Positions 17,271 through 63,783 of a DNA stretch of 64,000 bases are shown piece by piece; the stretch's first letter is position 1; each line of letters starts with the position of its first letter. The notes under the pieces were generated by a model, which was not told the DNA's origin, did not search any database, and saw nothing but the letters and a program-made list of their open reading frames with translations. The DNA comes from a bacterium (GTDB taxonomy: Bacteria > Armatimonadota > Chthonomonadetes > Chthonomonadales > JAMCWF01): NCBI GenBank assembly GCA_021842405.1, contig JAKBZR010000005.1, forward strand, positions 2,354 to 66,353. Reading direction: 5' to 3'. Both the position numbers and the translations under genes were made by a program.

Positions 17271-17405
17271 GTAAGAGTTCAGTTTTGCGGGAGTGATTTT
17301 TGTTCGCCCCCACCCCAGCCCTCCCCCGTCAACGGGGGAGGGAGTTGATTATTGCTATAGGGGTAAAGCCTGCTGCCTAAATTACCCAGAGAACTGAACT
17401 CATTC
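17271..17405. mobile_element. MITE-like element, short variant (135 bp)
   Basis: Termini gtaagagttcagttttgcggg ... cccagagaactgaactcattc are inverted repeats. The internal hairpin is ccctcccccgtcaacgggggaggg. It sits between the two tlpA paralogs. Confidence 0.6.
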
Positions 17406-19275: not shown

Positions 19276-19507
19276 AGCGGGGTGGTCTCATCTCTAGTTC
19301 GAATTGGCTGAGTGCCATCGGAGGTACAGCGATCTACACTGAAATCTACGATCTTATCACCATTCAACTGCGATAATTACAGACTAATCAATTCAAGATC
19401 AACCGATTTCACGGGCGTGGTTAGTGCCCGCCGAAACTGTCGGCTGCAATCCATTAGGGAATAAAGCCATAGCATCAGTTAATTGGTTAACCGTGTCGGT
19501 GGATAAC

Positions 19508-19636
19508 CGACCAGCATCAGCCCGTCATCGTTATCGTTGCGGTATCCCGATGTGGCCGCAAACAGGTAGGGCGAGCTGGTTGAGCCGCTGGTTGAAACCG
19601 TGTTGCCGTAACCGTCGTAGATTGCGCTGGCGGTCT
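19508..19636 (-). pseudogene. Orphan rhs core fragment (third copy), truncated
   Basis: My own reverse-strand translation gives TASAIYDGYGNTVSTSGSTSSPYLFAATSGYRNDNDDGLMLVG, then divergence and a stop. It is near-identical to the corresponding part of 21296-22357. Confidence 0.65.
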
Positions 19637-19678
19637 TCCTCCGTTGTGAGTTACGCCACTGGTCTCTTTAACTTTCCA

Positions 19679-20029
19679 CTATTTCCGGGACAAGTTTATA
19701 TGAAATTCTCTAACGTAATATAAATATAAGAGAATTTCGTATAGAATAACAAACCATTTAATAAAATGGTCACTAGAATTTAAACTCAATATCAAGCTCT
19801 GTAGTATTGCAAGTATTACTATGACATGACCTTTTGGATGATTATGAGACGCCAAAGGCAAAATTGCTGATAAGAATAAAATGCAAACTGAAGCAGTGAT
19901 CAGGTACCAATAATCTCTATTAAGCCAATATTCCGATACGAAATATATAGAAGTAACGAATCCAGCTAAAATTATTAAATAAATCTCAGCTAATGGATAA
20001 GATTTAATTATACGACAAATTGGATTCAT
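19679..20029 (-). CDS. Small polytopic membrane protein, candidate immunity protein for the orphan Rhs toxin tip
   Basis: 116 aa, mostly hydrophobic helices, in very AT-rich DNA (~27% GC in one spot count). It lies immediately downstream of the toxin-tip ORF. Confidence 0.5.
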   Translation of the reverse strand: MNPICRIIKSYPLAEIYLIILAGFVTSIYFVSEYWLNRDYWYLITASVCILFLSAILPLASHNHPKGHVIVILAILQSLILSLNSSDHFIKWFVILYEILLYLYYVREFHINLSRK

Positions 20030-20109
20030 ATATTTAGGCGAAATTCTTCTTGAAGATGAAGGGGATAATGAAGATGCTCGTTATCCCCTTCATAGATTGT
20101 ATTAGTTAA

Positions 20110-20598
20110 TTACAACCAACCAATCCCACGCCCAATTGAAACTGCAACTTCTCCGATTCCATAGGCGGCAGCCACGATACCAATGCCGATTAAAATTGGA
20201 GCACCAATTACTGCAGCACCTCCTGCGCCAATCAATCCAATTCCAACATCTATCACGCCGACACTTCCTCTGGTTCCGAGCGCTCCTCCTAAACCATTGC
20301 CGATATCATCTCCAATTCCTGGGTCGGGACCATAAAGCCCTGATCCAAAAGCTCCATTCCAGATTGTTCCTACCGAGCCTGCAACTCCAATTGACATCAT
20401 AACTGGATTTGCAGAATCAAGCTGTATTGCCTCTTTAAATTGGTTCCCCAATTCACTCCAACTAAAGTGCCCACTCGGATCAACCGCGTTGATTGGATCG
20501 TCGTTGCAGTACTGATAGGGCGGCTGGCTGAGCAGGGTGTCCCGCGTGATGAATAACCCCACCGCCGGATCGTAGTACCTTGCCCCGGCCAGCATCAA
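20110..20598 (-). CDS. Orphan Rhs C-terminal module: core-domain end plus glycine-zipper-like toxin tip
   Basis: ARYYDPAVGLFITRDTLLSQPPYQYCNDDPINAVDPSGH is followed by a Gly-rich hydrophobic ~115-aa tail. DNA homology to the upstream rhs continues to ~20652, past the annotated ATG, and there is no full N-terminus. Confidence 0.65.
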   Translation of the reverse strand: MMLAGARYYDPAVGLFITRDTLLSQPPYQYCNDDPINAVDPSGHFSWSELGNQFKEAIQLDSANPVMMSIGVAGSVGTIWNGAFGSGLYGPDPGIGDDIGNGLGGALGTRGSVGVIDVGIGLIGAGGAAVIGAPILIGIGIVAAAYGIGEVAVSIGRGIGWL

Positions 20599-20664
20599 CC
20601 CATCATCGTTATCGTTCCGGTAACCAGAGGTTGCGGCAAACAGGTAGGGCGAGAAGAATTGATT

Positions 20665-21210
20665 TTACTGCAAATACCAGCACCGCTCTCGAAGCATCTT
20701 TTCAATTGTTTCGATCTTTTCAACAGAATCTTTAAATGAGCCCCTCGGAAATAGAAACCAGCTTGTTTTTCCTCGAAGAAAGTAGAAATCGGTCCCTTTC
20801 GTGGTCTCAATAACTAAGAACGGAAACGGCCTACCCTTATAAGTTCTCCAACCTTTAATGTCACGCCAGGCTGTAATCGTTATCCGATCTGATGCCTCTT
20901 TAGCGATTAATTTTCGAAATCTATTATTAAGAATCCCGTGGAACTCTAAATCAATCCCCTCATCATCAAGAATAAAACGTTCTCTTACATAAGGCAAATA
21001 CTCCCAAAACAGAATTATTATTGTGGGTATTGTCGCATCCATAAAGTGAGGGGATAAAATGATTGATAAAATCGCAAAAATAAAATAACATATCCCAATA
21101 TACCATAAATTTTCAACTATATCTTTAATACCTGCCACGTCTCGCCAATACCAGATCAACTTTTTCCATTGGGCATGTTCGATAACTAGATGCGAACTTA
21201 CTCTATCCAT
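20665..21210 (-). CDS. Membrane protein with C-terminal PH-like (bPH/YdbT-like) region, candidate immunity protein
   Basis: 181 aa with two central TM helices, in low-GC DNA directly downstream of the rhs toxin tip. The domain call comes from sequence feel only. Confidence 0.45.
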   Translation of the reverse strand: MDRVSSHLVIEHAQWKKLIWYWRDVAGIKDIVENLWYIGICYFIFAILSIILSPHFMDATIPTIIILFWEYLPYVRERFILDDEGIDLEFHGILNNRFRKLIAKEASDRITITAWRDIKGWRTYKGRPFPFLVIETTKGTDFYFLRGKTSWFLFPRGSFKDSVEKIETIEKMLRERCWYLQ

Positions 21211-21241
21211 ATTTGGGCAATCTCCCTATTGCTTCAGTTAT

Positions 21242-21280
21242 CAACCTGGTGGGGGAAAGACATCCCACCAGGTTGTTTTT
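21242..21280 (+). terminator. 12-bp GC-rich stem-loop followed by T5 (canonical intrinsic terminator shape on the + strand)
   Basis: caacctggtggg / cccaccaggttg arms with a 10-nt loop, then ttttt. It lies between the rhs stop (21296) and the immunity start (21210), both of which are minus-strand genes. Confidence 0.45.
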
Positions 21281-21295
21281 CAGCAAATGCATTAA

Positions 21296-22357
21296 CTAAT
21301 GTAGGCCGAATGGAGGACGTGAGTTAAACATTCTGGTCAAAAAAGCCGCGAGCGCTTCCAACTCTTCCGCGCTGACCCCTGATCTTAAGAATGTCCCTAA
21401 GGCCGGAATTGCAGGGTAGGTTATGAAGGTACCACCACCGACAACTACTCCCTCACCTATAGAAGACCCCACAGAACCACCATCACCATAGTAGGTACCT
21501 AGGCCCGCCCCCAAGCCTGCACCAATTGAACTACCGTACCATGCTCCTGGCGGACCTGCTATTACATAACCAATTGCACCTCCTACTATACCACCAACTA
21601 TTCCTCCTACGTCTGACCAACTTACCTGCCCACTCGGATCTACCTTGTTGACTGGGTCGTCGTTGCAGTACTGGTAGGGCGGCTGGCTGAGCAGGGTGTC
21701 TCGCGTGATGAACTCTCCCACCGCCGGGTCGTAATACCGCGCGCCGACCAGCATCAGCCCGTCATCGTTGTCGTTCCTATACCCCGATGTGGCCGCAAAC
21801 AGATAGGGCGAGCTGGTTGAGCCGCTGGTCGCAACCGTGTTGCCGTAACCGTCATAGATGGCGCTGGCGGTTTGTGATCCGCTGCTGTTGGTGATTGTCC
21901 GGGTTGAGCCTAAGCCGTCGTACTGGAAGTACTCGCCGTTCCTGCGAATGAGCGACGCCCCATAGGTGTAGGTTCCGGTAAATGTCCCTCCTTGCGACTC
22001 AAGAATGACGTTGCCACCATCATACCAGAAATCGGTGGTGGTATTTCCACTGGCGCGGGCAACCCTTCTCCCAATTGCATCGTAGGCGAAGCTGGTGGTG
22101 TTGCTCCCAGTGGCGATGGAGACCAATTGATCGGCATCGTTGTAACTCAGGTTGCTGGTTACGCCGCCGATGGTTCGCGTGATCTGATCGCCGTCGGCGT
22201 TGTAGGTGTAGCTGTTAGTGCCGGCTGACTGAAGCTCATCGTCGCTGTCGTAGCTGTAGCTGATCGGGTTGCCGTTCAGCGTCAGTTGGGTTCGGTTGCC
22301 GGTCGGGTCGTAGGTGAAGCTCTCGGTGTTTAACAAAACACATTGCCCACGGCGCAT
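21296..22357 (-). CDS. 5'-truncated Rhs/YD-repeat protein with core domain and glycine-zipper-like C-terminal toxin tip
   Basis: YD repeats (YDPTGNRT, YSYDSDDEL, YTYNADGDQ, FAYDAIGRR), then ARYYDPAVGEFITRD...NDDPVNKVDPSGQ, then a Gly-rich tail. An in-frame stop lies 6 codons upstream of the ATG, so the large N-terminal shell part is missing. Confidence 0.8.
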   Translation of the reverse strand: MRRGQCVLLNTESFTYDPTGNRTQLTLNGNPISYSYDSDDELQSAGTNSYTYNADGDQITRTIGGVTSNLSYNDADQLVSIATGSNTTSFAYDAIGRRVARASGNTTTDFWYDGGNVILESQGGTFTGTYTYGASLIRRNGEYFQYDGLGSTRTITNSSGSQTASAIYDGYGNTVATSGSTSSPYLFAATSGYRNDNDDGLMLVGARYYDPAVGEFITRDTLLSQPPYQYCNDDPVNKVDPSGQVSWSDVGGIVGGIVGGAIGYVIAGPPGAWYGSSIGAGLGAGLGTYYGDGGSVGSSIGEGVVVGGGTFITYPAIPALGTFLRSGVSAEELEALAAFLTRMFNSRPPFGLH

Positions 22358-22386
22358 GGCCAGTTCGTTTGTATGTTATGAACCTC

Positions 22387-22434
22387 ATATAGTAGAGGAG
22401 TGGCTCGTTTCAGCCTCCACCTCCTCTACTATAT
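22387..22434. terminator. Long near-perfect stem-loop downstream of the 615-aa gene
   Basis: atatagtagaggagtgg ... ccacctcctctactatat (17-bp arms, one bulge). There is no clear U-run on the minus strand, so its terminator function is uncertain. Confidence 0.4.
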
Positions 22435-22466
22435 GAATAACTTCTTATGGCCGGTCGGCAGGCCTT

Positions 22467-24314
22467 TTACTGTCCAGGCGGCGGGGGCGGTTGAAACGCC
22501 CCTAGCGTCACCGTCGTTGTTTGTGATATGCCTACCTGCACATTGACGCTCGCTTCACCCGGCGAGCGATAGGGGGCGGTGGCCTTTACCGTATAAGTTC
22601 CTGGTGGAACGGTGATAAAGGTGGCAACGTCATTCCCTTTGCCGTCGGAGGCGCTGGTCGCCTGGCCGAACACCTGTCCGCTGCTGTTGATCAACTGCAC
22701 CTGCGCGCTGACCGGCTCGCTCGGATCCGAAGTGTAAACCTGCAACTGCAAAAGCACCGTTAGCTTTACCGGGATCGTCACGGTTCCACTGGACGGAGAG
22801 GTAAACTCCTTAAAGCCACCTTGATAACCCATCGGAGCAGTGATATTGCCACTTGCCTTCCATTTCCATCCTTTAGCAATAGTTAAATTGGTGCTCCAAT
22901 TAGGAGGATTGAATGAAAGAGTGGTGCCGCCGGTAGGGTAGGGTGGTGGAGATGGAGTGGTAGAGGCTCCTTCCAAGTCTAACTGACCCATTCCCATTCC
23001 ACCCATACTGCTGGGCGGTGGAATATCCGGCTTCAACTGGAAGGTGACATTTTGTAGAATCGGCATAAGGTTACGTGGTTCCGCAGCTCCTTGTGAAGCG
23101 GTGAGCACGTAGATATCCCCTAAGGAGAAAACATCACCCGGCCTTAAACCCGAAGCCTGCTGGTTGGCCTGGTTGGCAAGCCAGTCAGTGGCGGCGGCGA
23201 TGACGAGATGCGATAAAAAGTCGGCCTTCGGTTGGAGAATGGGAACAATTGCATTGAGCACGATGCTCCAGTTGCCCCCTTTTCTTTCCCGCTCAAATGG
23301 GATCGCCAGTATCGCGGTCGCCTGACCCTGAAAGTCAATTCTCCAGTAGGCGTAACCTTTTGAGTAAGGTGGAAATGTCACGCCTGAGAGCGCCGGCGTT
23401 GGGTCGGTTTGGGTGAGCGATGCGATAAGGTTCTGCAATTGGGTATAGGAGGCTGGATCCTTAATTTTGATACCTGCTAAAGATACCGTATCACAATCCA
23501 GACCCTTCTTAACGAACGAATAGGCACTCGGCGGACCGATAGAGATAGTGTTTCCCTGGTCATTGGTGACATCTTGGGTCGCGCAGCCGCGACTCCTTCC
23601 CATATAGCTGATGCCGGTCAACACACCGGGAGCCTTGGTGGGATCACCGATCACTCCAAAGTAATCGCTGCCGTTTGGGGGACCGGCCGGCGTATATTGG
23701 GAACAGGCGATCGGTGCAGGACAAAACGGCTCAAACCCACCGCCTTGGCTGTACCATGCAATGGTATCCCACTTTCCTAAATCCACCGCCAGAGTAGACA
23801 GGGTCGTGCCGCTGGTACTGAACACGGTCGCCACATAATCGCGCACACTCGAATCGTTCTGGAATGAACCCTGGATTTCGCTGTGGGCGGCATTCGCCTG
23901 AAGGTCGGCCACCAGTTTACCCGTATCGTTTTCCTTAACCACAATGTGGCCCAGCCGATTCTTTGCGTCGGTGATGTGGACGGTGGTGGTGAGTGTTGCA
24001 TCAATTGAGTTGAAGTAGCCCCAACCTCCCTCATCCGGTAGGCCGAGCGTCAGGAAGGCTTTATCGGTTATGCTGGAGAAATCAATCTGTTCGCCCGGGG
24101 TGTAGGCGGCCACCCAGCAGCTCATGGTCAATTGGCGCTGCTGCCCGCTGAGGTTTCTAAAATTGCCGCTGACCGAGATGTAGGCGGCCAAGTTGGTGTC
24201 GGTGGGCAAGGGGAATGGAGCTTGAGCGAGGGCCGGTTCATTCCCGATAAGGCTGCCGGCAGCAAAGAGAAGCGCCAGCCGATAAATGAACATGCATCTT
24301 TTTGTGACTGACAT
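22467..24314 (-). CDS. Secreted protein of unknown function with Pro-rich linker and C-terminal CarboxypepD_reg-like beta-sandwich
   Basis: Signal peptide (LALLFAAGSLIGNEPALAQA). No family is recognised in the first ~430 aa. The tail VPPGTYTVKATAPYRSPGEASVNVQV resembles carboxypeptidase-regulatory-like folds. Confidence 0.55.
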   Translation of the reverse strand: MSVTKRCMFIYRLALLFAAGSLIGNEPALAQAPFPLPTDTNLAAYISVSGNFRNLSGQQRQLTMSCWVAAYTPGEQIDFSSITDKAFLTLGLPDEGGWGYFNSIDATLTTTVHITDAKNRLGHIVVKENDTGKLVADLQANAAHSEIQGSFQNDSSVRDYVATVFSTSGTTLSTLAVDLGKWDTIAWYSQGGGFEPFCPAPIACSQYTPAGPPNGSDYFGVIGDPTKAPGVLTGISYMGRSRGCATQDVTNDQGNTISIGPPSAYSFVKKGLDCDTVSLAGIKIKDPASYTQLQNLIASLTQTDPTPALSGVTFPPYSKGYAYWRIDFQGQATAILAIPFERERKGGNWSIVLNAIVPILQPKADFLSHLVIAAATDWLANQANQQASGLRPGDVFSLGDIYVLTASQGAAEPRNLMPILQNVTFQLKPDIPPPSSMGGMGMGQLDLEGASTTPSPPPYPTGGTTLSFNPPNWSTNLTIAKGWKWKASGNITAPMGYQGGFKEFTSPSSGTVTIPVKLTVLLQLQVYTSDPSEPVSAQVQLINSSGQVFGQATSASDGKGNDVATFITVPPGTYTVKATAPYRSPGEASVNVQVGISQTTTVTLGAFQPPPPPGQ

Positions 24315-24816
24315 TTGAATAACCTCTGCTTGAATTTACTCAACTTGTTGTGCAGAAGCAAACGTGGAGATCAGCCTAATCCTGGCCTCGCATAGGCGGG
24401 GCGAGAGGCGGCTTGCAACTAAAACAGCGGGTACAGTCGCCTGCCTACCAGTCCGGTAGGTTCGGCGCGACTTTCAGGTGGAGATCGGGAAGCTAGGGAT
24501 AGAGGCGAGTAATATCGCCCCCCCGTTGAAGCATGTCCCCAACTCGATTGGGAATATGGGAAGGTCGGATATTTAGAGGTGTACAGTTGGTTTACAGTAC
24601 TCATCGTCTACTCGTACCGAGTAAGGAAAACCGTGAATAGCTTAATACTATCAGGATAGTAAATCAGCTTTACCCGGATGTAAATAGACCAATTAGTACT
24701 ACCAAAATAGTACTTTTGGTTCATTTATTATTTATCATCCGTAAATATTATCTTTTAATTCTCCCTTCACCCGCTCCTCGCTTACCGCCAACCCCGCCAC
24801 CGTTTTGGCCAATTGC

Positions 24817-24936
24817 GGGTGCAAGCGGCTCCATCAGGTCATAGACCAAGGCGGAGCGACCGGGGCGGCAGGCGTGCAGGTAACCGATGGTGGGATCAAG
24901 TCCGGCTGCCACCGTTGGGATCCGAACCTGGCTCAT
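24817..24936 (-). pseudogene. cas1: Possible cas1 relic (about 35 codons)
   Basis: The reverse translation [29 protein letters not shown] resembles the conserved Cas1 block (GLDP.iGFLH..rpGR.SLalDLMEeFRP). A stop lies immediately upstream and the sequence diverges downstream. There is no array and there are no other cas genes. Confidence 0.4.
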
Positions 24937-31821: not shown

Positions 31822-32026
31822 GAATGAGTTCAGTTCTGTGGGAAACATTTACGACCATATTGGATGCACCCCCACCCTAACCCTCCCCCGTAAACGGGGG
31901 AGGGGATTAAGAGGGACTGGGGGGCAAGATAAAAGCGCCGCCGCTAAATTCCCTCTCCCTCCCCGCTTGCGGGGAGGGCTGGGGTGGGGTCGAACGAAAA
32001 TCATTCCCGCAAAACTGAACTGTTAC
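31822..32026. mobile_element. MITE-like element, 205-bp type (copy 1 of 3 near-identical)
   Basis: Termini are inverted repeats about 30 bp long (gaatgagttcagttctgtgggaaacattt ... aaaatcattcccgcaaaactgaactgttac). The interior is shared almost base for base with 42030-42234 and 53043-53248. Confidence 0.7.
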
Positions 32027-42029: not shown

Positions 42030-42234
42030 GTAAGTGTTCAGTTTTACGGGAATCATTTACGACCATATTGGATGCACCCCCACCCTAACCCTCCCCCGTA
42101 AACGGGGGAGGGGATTAAGAGGGACTGGGGGGCAAGATAAAAGCACCACCGCTAAACTCCCTCCCCCTCCCCGCTTGCTGGGAGGGCTGGGGTGGGGTCG
42201 AACGAAAATCATTCCCATAAAACTGAACTCTTAC
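42030..42234. mobile_element. MITE-like element, 205-bp type (copy 2 of 3)
   Basis: The left end gtaagtgttcagttttacgggaatcatttacg matches the inverse of the right end (gtaagagttcagttttatgggaatgattttcg). The track ORF 42034-42276 lies inside it. Confidence 0.7.
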
Positions 42235-53042: not shown

Positions 53043-53248
53043 GTGAGAGTTCAGTTTTACCGGAATCATTTACGACCATATTGGATGCACCCCCACCCCG
53101 GTCCTCCCTCGTAAACGGGGGAGGGGATTAAGAGGGACTGGGGGGGCAAGATAAAAGCACCGCCGCTAAACTCTCTCCCCCTCCCCGCTTGCGGGGAGGG
53201 CTGGGGTGGGGTCGAACGAAAATCACTCCCACAAAACTGAACTCTTTC
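53043..53248. mobile_element. MITE-like element, 205-bp type (copy 3 of 3)
   Basis: gtgagagttcagttttaccggaatcatttacg ... aaaatcactcccacaaaactgaactctttc. The interior is near-identical to the other two copies. It lies immediately upstream of the ATP-grasp island. Confidence 0.7.
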
Positions 53249-63643: not shown

Positions 63644-63783
63644 CAGTTCAGTTCTCTGGGTAATTTAGGCAGCAGGCTTTTACCACTATAGCAATAATCA
63701 ACTCCCTCTCCCCTCGTGGGAGAGGGTTGGGGTGGTGGCGGCAAATGCTGCTAGAAAACATTCCCCGAAAATTGAACTCTTTC
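63640..63783. mobile_element. MITE-like element, short variant (inverted relative to 17271-17405)
   Basis: gtaacagttcagttctctgggtaatttaggcagcaggc... matches the inverse of the 17405 end. The right end is ccccgaaaattgaactctttc. Confidence 0.6.

Follow-up and report, generated by a model that had tools for sequence, protein, structure and literature searches.

Introduction

In Escherichia coli K-12, RhsE is a 5'-truncated Rhs element, the 'main' gene of which keeps only the 3' core part and the tip. Orphan rhs-CT/rhsI modules arise by the exchange and displacement of C-terminal ends (PMC3150448). In the case of Tse5, the Rhs shell shields the cytoplasm of the producer (PMC12744356, PMC11630599). 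Moreover, in nearly every case studied, the neutralization of channel-forming effectors is due to polytopic membrane immunity proteins, and orphan copies of such membrane immunity genes persist in non-producers (PMC12744356). In this study, a minus-strand Rhs locus was analyzed in a 64,000-nucleotide (nt) stretch of contig JAKBZR010000005.1, which belongs to a metagenome-assembled genome (MAG) of Armatimonadota; this whole stretch is referred to as the window. The locus, spanning 19507-22436, is an orphan Rhs toxin/immunity array of known type, which it documents in a barely studied phylum. With a probability of roughly 0.6, the array is a non-deliverable remnant whose lasting value would lie in its two membrane immunity genes, the toxin fragments being carried along.

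Truncation of the rhs gene

The first gene of the locus encodes a product of 353 amino acids (aa), which matched RHS_repeat PF05593 (E=5e-6, 27.2 bits, cut-off 22) and TIGR01643 (21.2 bits, cut-off 15.8). The RHS repeat-associated core TIGR03696 was found at residues 168-244 (52.4 bits, cut-off 32.5), with the motifs ...YYDP...ITRD...DPSG. The fragment aligned to the C-terminal ~210 residues of Rhs shells with a solved structure, e.g., to residues 941-1151 of the 1152 residues of 8h8a, and solely to residues ~720-960 of the 1053-aa full-length protein of a related locus, L023. Accordingly, only ~235 of the ~950 residues of shell and core were left, the complete enclosing YD shell was absent, and the fragment was without a Sec signal peptide, DUF6531, and most YD repeats. 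The open reading frame (ORF) opens with MRRGQCVLLN, and an in-frame TAA lies 6 codons upstream of its ATG. Residues 1-10 were non-homologous, and the nucleotide homology to the nearest relative begins at 22329. As judged from these alignments, ~700 N-terminal residues, including all those required for export and shell closure, are truly missing at the locus. No further Rhs sequence was found in the window beyond the locus.

The features of the locus are given below, in the order in which the minus strand is read.

22385..22436, no strand: perfect 16-bp stem-loop with a 20-nt loop (inverted repeat arms 22385-22400/22421-22436)
21296..22357, - strand: rhs gene truncated at its 5' end, 353 aa; the last YD repeats and the core make up residues 11-244, which end in ...DPVNKVDPSGQ
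21626..22329, - strand: Rhs-homologous part of the 353-aa fragment (YD shell remnant and core), GC 0.585
21299..21625, - strand: tip 1, 109 aa, 25% Gly; C-terminal part of the 353-aa fragment (residues 245-353)
21240..21280, no strand: stem-loop within the gap that separates tip 1 from immunity gene 1, with a T-run solely on the + strand
20665..21210, - strand: putative immunity gene 1, 181 aa, GC 0.374, with an N-terminal hydrophobic segment
20110..20652, - strand: orphan 2, consisting of a core end at 20464-20652 (SPYLF...DPSGH) and tip 2 at 20113-20463
20113-20463, - strand: tip 2, 118 aa, 25% Gly, two hydrophobic segments; fused to the orphan-2 core end
20056..20093, no strand: stem-loop (16-bp stem with one mismatch) within the gap that separates tip 2 from immunity gene 2
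19679..20029, - strand: putative immunity gene 2, 116 aa, GC 0.293, with 3-4 hydrophobic segments; probably a polytopic membrane protein
about 19507..19637, - strand: terminal core stub, 43 codons (TASAIYDGYG...LMLVG), 3'-truncated before ARYYDP, without a tip or an immunity gene

The gene order is thus stem-loop, ORF, stem-loop, ORF, orphan, stem-loop, ORF, and stub. Orphan 2 begins 12 nt past immunity gene 1, and its 5' edge is without a start codon; the two share a reading frame, with one TAA and four codons between them (20652-20667). Within orphan 2, start codons are limited to the TTG/ATG in the conserved GLML motif (20595-20598). In the terminal stub, the homology ends after LMLVG, after which the frame reads YPPTRLTN and stops.

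An earlier note, made from the letters of this DNA, had described a 353-aa Rhs protein at 21296-22357 with YD repeats and a core, a stop codon 6 codons upstream of its ATG, a stem-loop ~30 nt from that ATG, and the absence of the N-terminal shell and delivery region. These points were borne out by the matches above their cut-offs for PF05593 and TIGR03696, the TAA, a 16-bp inverted repeat ending 28 nt away, and the restriction of the alignment to residues ~720-960 of the 1053-aa relative. The statement that even the 'main' gene is a fragment also stood, as the gene upstream encodes an unrelated 615-aa protein, in the same way in 8 contigs.

Since the window is from a MAG, and repeated genes often mis-assemble, an artefact of assembly or sequencing might conceal a contiguous full-length gene. 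The 8 contigs of the locus that were retrieved, from seven samples or assemblies (NCBI, ENA, and Logan), were clonal and 99.99-100% identical to the window, also across the junctions, and the exact 353-aa protein was present on 22 contigs. Moreover, the upstream 615-aa ORF was intact and unrelated. Because the arrangement was identical in 8 contigs from seven samples or assemblies, assembly error was excluded, and the probability left for an artefact is negligible. An N-terminal Rhs region appearing upstream after error correction, which the earlier note had named as evidence against its reading, was not seen in these 8 contigs.

A genuine short Rhs family was suggested by the first homologue search, in which nearly all proteins recovered were 200-613 aa long, the majority of them from Armatimonadota MAGs. 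However, this reading was dropped because the start points of the short homologues were scattered along the full-length relatives. Their N-termini fell at scattered YD-repeat positions and could not be aligned, their first residues were unrelated, and the proteins aligned to the C-terminal parts of 1000-1180-aa relatives, so that full-length relatives do exist. Alternatively, a split gene would have its N-terminal half in the upstream 615-aa protein (22467-24314, - strand), which has a signal-peptide-like N-terminus and a weak C-terminal match resembling CarboxypepD_reg and the tail of type IX secretion system (T9SS) proteins. This protein was rejected as the missing half: it had no YD similarity and no PDB match, none of the related Rhs loci contains it, and its gene ends in a stop codon, with 109 nt and a hairpin before the start of the fragment. 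A short family or a split gene is therefore considered very improbable.

Divergence of the core copies

A self-alignment of the locus, which had been set beforehand as a test, revealed the expected homology blocks. The interval 20458-20653 matched 21617-21812 with 84% identity over 196 nt, and 19507-19634 matched 21744-21871 with 92% identity over 128 nt. The earlier note had seen the core end recur with a different tip up to 20110 and a third partial copy break off after LMLVG, and both repeats were recovered in these alignments. It had also placed the locus among orphan toxin/immunity cassettes with core homology, and the two downstream pieces fit the description of such modules (PMC3150448). 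All three core copies are in-frame and in the same orientation. The repeats go well beyond what chance would give and, as read from the alignments, are in-frame protein homologues of one Rhs core.

The substitutions were then compared as synonymous (dS) and nonsynonymous (dN) divergence. Between the main core and copy 2, 31 differences were counted in 189 nt, with a dS of 0.85, a dN of 0.06, and an omega of 0.07. The main core and the stub differed at 11 positions in 129 nt (dS 0.35, omega 0.06), and the 8 differences between copy 2 and the stub were all synonymous. Because the differences were almost only synonymous, an origin from separate functional rhs genes is favored over local duplication and neutral decay. 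Judging by this substitution pattern, the copies are not recent local duplicates; each must have diverged inside a separate working rhs gene, and they must have been brought together later.

The nearest relative of the 353-aa fragment is a 599-aa fragment in another MAG (locus L009), with 83% DNA and 89% protein identity over the shared part and an omega of 0.12 at a dS of 0.72. The cores were 89% identical in protein, and the tips diverged completely right after DPSG. As the two fragments differ in their truncation points and carry unrelated tips, their truncations are independent. These truncations would either be recent relative to the divergence of the fragments or have later been kept under constraint.

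The GC content decreased stepwise from the core (0.58-0.60) to the tips (0.48-0.51) and the putative immunity ORFs (0.37 and 0.29), the value for the window being 0.53. A stepwise drop of this kind is typical of imported tips. The low GC content of the intervening genes, as noted earlier, was thus verified (0.374 and 0.293 compared with 0.529 for the window).

Full-length relatives and headless arrays

To place the locus in its lineage, relatives were scanned in a collection of one genome per species, with the genome of the window being outside that collection. The scan yielded 78 related loci, nearly all from Chthonomonadales-like Armatimonadota, and the record names of the relatives make this phylum the probable one for the host of the locus as well. 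In eleven related loci, the Rhs similarity was continuous over about 985-1180 residues, and most of these eleven had an uninterrupted frame with a Sec-type signal peptide, DUF6531, 16-19 RHS repeats, the core, and a ~100-aa tip. When the N-terminal 700 residues were used as a search profile, many more proteins were found, most of about 1000-1270 aa. The full-length Rhs proteins of L015, L016, L018, L021, L023, and L026 are unusually compact (~1000-1180 aa). Full-length Rhs proteins of the lineage have a Sec signal peptide and DUF6531 instead of PAAR/VgrG-type delivery domains, their hosts being presumably diderm.

Among the related arrays, 26 were headless, i.e., their first unit was 5'-truncated, versus 11 headed by a full-length gene, and 38 more were cut by contig ends. 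An array was called headless when the DNA upstream was without Rhs similarity over 1.5 kb or more, and in most cases over ~10 kb. Headlessness is the commonest state in the lineage, not an oddity. The 5' truncation points of the relatives were scattered from about residue 187 to 930 of the 1053-aa reference, no N-terminus was conserved, and many of the fragments were without start codons. A terminal 3'-truncated core stub closed 17 of the 67 determinable arrays, including that of the nearest relative, and the copies within any one array were all co-oriented. The array of L025 consists of seven units. In four look-ups, the genes upstream of the relatives' fragments were those of ABC transporter components, a glycoside hydrolase, an rve integrase-family transposase, and an uncharacterized 413-aa ORF, with more fragments lying downstream.

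The array might serve as a reservoir of silent cassettes, in which tip/immunity cassettes would move through core-block recombination or gene conversion into a full-length, Sec-exported rhs gene elsewhere in the genome or in a recipient and thereby switch its toxin. The core blocks are in frame and under strong purifying selection, and all copies of an array share one orientation, which is compatible with a reservoir. Moreover, one MAG contains a pair of paralogous scaffolds, P0016 and P0024, both truncated, with a common 5' end and different tips, which indicates that tips do get exchanged on truncated scaffolds, and the mobilization of Salmonella orphans by duplication and recombination is documented, as cited in PMC7043789. 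However, the core copies at the locus are 8-16% diverged with a longest identical run of 26 nt, so that recombination would be inefficient, and the dS of 0.35-0.85 indicates no recent homogenization between them. In the 5.8-billion-protein collection, no full-length protein was more than 58% identical to this core region, and all close relatives were fragments. Nothing close was found in the JGI metagenomes by an exact-pattern scan and a protein scan. In a search that did not take in the window's own genome as a whole, one candidate for a full-length partner, P0230, was rejected, as it belongs to another MAG. A reservoir is therefore regarded as unlikely, with about one chance in five left to it.

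Tips, putative immunity genes, and persistence of the array

The two tips are unrelated to each other, and both are glycine-rich and hydrophobic. Glycine-zipper motifs were counted as (G/A/S)xxxGxxxG or GxxxGxxx(G/S/T) in a hydrophobic segment. Tip 1 had 13 matches compared with 3.5 ± 1.9 in shuffles, and none of 2000 shuffles reached 13, whereas the 5 matches of tip 2 were no more than its composition predicts. Tip 1 gave a match to PF05433 'Glycine zipper 2TM' (E=0.028), which at 14.8 bits was below the cut-off of 24.2, and tip 2 gave no match to this family. Among 1.84 billion representative proteins, no real homologue of tip 1 was found, the matches being low-complexity and Gly-rich. When tip 2 was queried together with the core, it aligned weakly to the tips of the full-length L016, L018, and L026 proteins. 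Most of the relatives' tips that were read were glycine-rich and hydrophobic like tips 1 and 2.

Immunity gene 1 is an ORFan, with only a self-match among 5.8 billion proteins and no Pfam or NCBIfam match. A tblastn search with the tips and the immunity genes against 83 related loci gave one weak match only. Hydrophobic segments numbered one in immunity ORF 1 and three to four in immunity ORF 2. The toxin and immunity roles of the tips and neighboring ORFs are putative and follow from position and composition.

The fragments might also act inside the cell as a toxin-antitoxin or addiction module. In that case, the fragment, or a product from the internal Met of GLMLVG, would be made in the cytoplasm, its tip would be restrained by the immunity protein, and the module would stabilize the locus or modulate growth. 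The first fragment is provided with an ATG of its own, both tips are intact, and without a shell a pore-forming tip would be unshielded and dangerous. Indeed, the tip of Tse5 exerts toxicity from the cytoplasm, against which its Rhs barrel normally acts as a shield (PMC12744356), and internally expressed Rhs toxins have a precedent in the main and orphan toxins of Salmonella (PMC7043789). The strong stem-loops 27-30 nt upstream of each ORF start could in addition shape mRNA ends. However, a sigma-70 scan, which is uncalibrated for this phylum, found no promoter-like site upstream of the 353-aa fragment and gave fewer hits than shuffles, and reading the sequence revealed no obvious Shine-Dalgarno before the ATG. 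The scattered 5' ends of the relatives' fragments, many without start codons, also argue against such a module, which was accordingly rated as distinctly improbable, below the reservoir.

For the array as a non-deliverable remnant, the following course is proposed. The stack would have been assembled by repeated 'C-terminal displacement', in which incoming rhs ends recombine through the core block and push older tips downstream, each copy being derived from a functional rhs gene that had evolved separately. The 5' ~700 codons would have been lost later, by deletion or rearrangement, after which the toxin would no longer be delivered by the locus. Because the signal peptide and the closed shell are missing, neither export nor encapsulation of the toxins is expected. 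The two membrane immunity genes would protect against relatives firing cognate membrane-active tips, and this would be the main reason why the array persists, with the toxin fragments remaining as passengers that are still potential recombination substrates.

Three observations weigh against this proposal. First, with an omega of 0.12 separating two fragments that were truncated independently, selection may still be acting on the fragments as such. Second, tip 1 and immunity gene 1 are without homologues anywhere searched, and no cognate attacker is known. Third, the ORFs of both tips are intact and the first fragment starts with an ATG of its own, which would fit continued toxin use equally well.

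Stem-loops between the genes

Each of the three intergenic gaps contains one stem-loop, located 17-31 nt past the stop of one gene and 27-30 nt ahead of the ATG that follows. The stem-loop at 22385-22436 ends 28 nt from the ATG of the rhs fragment (22357), in a gap starting at the stop of the 615-aa gene (22467). The DNA around it is particular to this genome, being located upstream of 22329, where the homology breaks off, and the 102-nt gap holding the stem-loop had an RNA minimum free energy of -39.2 kcal/mol (z=-6.0). The stem-loop at 21240-21280 is about 19 nt past the tip-1 stop and 30 nt before the immunity-1 ATG, and that at 20056-20093 is 17 nt past the tip-2 stop and 27 nt before the immunity-2 ATG. 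Stems of at least 11 bp with at most 1 mismatch occurred eight times in the whole 64 kb, four of them inside the 2.8-kb locus (19697-22436).

In the related loci, a stem of at least 10 bp was present in 39 of 127 (31%) distinct toxin-downstream segments, compared with 2.05 ± 1.3 (1.6%) after dinucleotide shuffling and 56 of 564 (10%) other long-ORF ends, this control set being made up of stop-to-stop ORFs rather than curated genes. The relatives' hairpins typically followed the toxin stop by about 20 nt. Among related gaps of at least 25 nt, a hairpin was present in 34 of 84, at a median of 34 nt before the next start. The hairpins had no common sequence, and a T-rich tail was found in 4 of 40 and an A-rich leader in 0 of 40.

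The earlier note had taken the hairpin between tip 1 and immunity gene 1 as a canonical terminator in the opposite orientation. Part of this claim stood: the hairpin at 21242-21275 scored as a + strand terminator, opposite to the genes, with 13 pairs, the tail TTTTTCAGCA, and a folding z-score of -4.3 to -4.7. On the minus strand, which carries the genes, the stem of 21240-21280 is followed by GAUAACUG and no U-tract, the T-run at 21276-21281 being present on the + strand only. Because the relatives' hairpins rarely carry T-rich tails and never A-rich leaders, the T-run is most likely incidental, and the element is not a canonical terminator in either direction but a member of a recurrent, tail-less class. 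An integron attC site was also considered for the hairpins and was rejected by inspection, since the RYYYAAC / GTTRRRY core sites were absent and the position was the toxin-immunity gap rather than a cassette boundary. Rfam and tRNA scans of the window gave nothing. The placement of the hairpins points to a possible RNA-level role between the toxin and immunity cistrons, which might be attenuation, stabilization of a 3' or 5' end, or RNase III-type processing that uncouples the messages.

A more speculative proposal combines the hairpins with the headless arrays. Such arrays may be pilS-like silent stores that feed a compact Sec-exported Rhs locus by core-block gene conversion, with the tail-less hairpins, diverse in sequence and constant in structure, as a lineage-specific RNA processing or stability signal uncoupling immunity from toxin expression. 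This proposal is a long shot. The locus itself is a textbook product of Rhs tip displacement and adds little alone. Should a function be shown for the hairpins or headless arrays, this would be relevant to how immunity is kept on while toxins are silenced or stored.

Neighboring and other repeated elements

An isolated 62-aa Cas1 fragment was observed at 24748-24936 (- strand), ~2.4 kb upstream of the Rhs fragment. In L009, a Cas1 fragment (280-477) is also located a few kb upstream of the Rhs fragment, the two being 48% identical over 25 aa. This hints that the Rhs loci of the window and L009 may be orthologous remnants beside a decayed CRISPR-Cas locus. Elsewhere in the window, a ~200-nt element was found in three copies (31828-32026, 42036-42234, and 53047-53243) that were 91-94% identical. 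It has ~23-nt terminal inverted repeats (GTTCAGTTTTACGGGAATCATTT) and two internal GC-rich hairpins, resembles a miniature inverted-repeat transposable element (MITE), and had no Rfam match. In addition, a 97-nt repeat with 89.7% identity was present in two distant intergenic regions, at ~17305-17400 and 63645-63740.

Comparison with known systems

The closest counterparts are the rhsC locus of Dickeya dadantii 3937 and the main and orphan rhs of Salmonella Typhimurium (PMC3150448, PMC7043789), where, as here, a core stretch is kept up to DPxG, the tips are unrelated, and a small immunity ORF follows each of them. As in these enterobacterial modules, the orphans are without start signals at their 5' edge. 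In the array described here, a candidate immunity ORF follows the first two fragments (181 aa and 116 aa), and none follows the stub. Unlike the enterobacterial modules, the array is not downstream of a full-length rhs gene but of an unrelated 615-aa gene. The host is Armatimonadota-like, and the proteins of the parent family measure ~1050 aa and carry a Sec signal peptide and DUF6531, and they are not PAAR/VgrG-linked cargo of type VI secretion (T6SS). The cleavage motif also differs, being DPSG[QH] here and DPxGL there. Compared with E. coli K-12 RhsE, the locus belongs to another phylum and family, and it has stacked orphans and a terminal stub in addition.

Tse5/Tsi5 of Pseudomonas aeruginosa (PMC12744356, PMC11630599) similarly combines an Rhs scaffold, a membrane-active tip, which is predicted here, and a membrane-bound immunity protein. 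However, Tse5 is full-length and T6SS-delivered, and its tip has no sequence similarity to the tips of the locus. In the case of the glycine-zipper depolarizing toxins, namely, EsxX, TelE, and TspA of the type VII secretion system (T7SS) and CdzC/D of Caulobacter (PMC12744356, PMC5380434), the likeness lies in tip 1, which is hydrophobic and dense in (G/A/S)xxxGxxxG and has a membrane-protein neighbor. Those toxins are delivered by LXG or type I secretion (T1SS) routes, and the likeness of tip 1 is known from its sequence, its Pfam match being sub-threshold. Finally, orphan immunity islands, i.e., the acquired interbacterial defence of Bacteroidales (mentioned in PMC10470768) and ExiCD (PMC12744356), likewise hold immunity genes without a deliverable toxin and are presumably protective. 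Such islands usually consist of immunity genes alone, some with recombinases, whereas the Armatimonadota array retains toxin fragments and core repeats.

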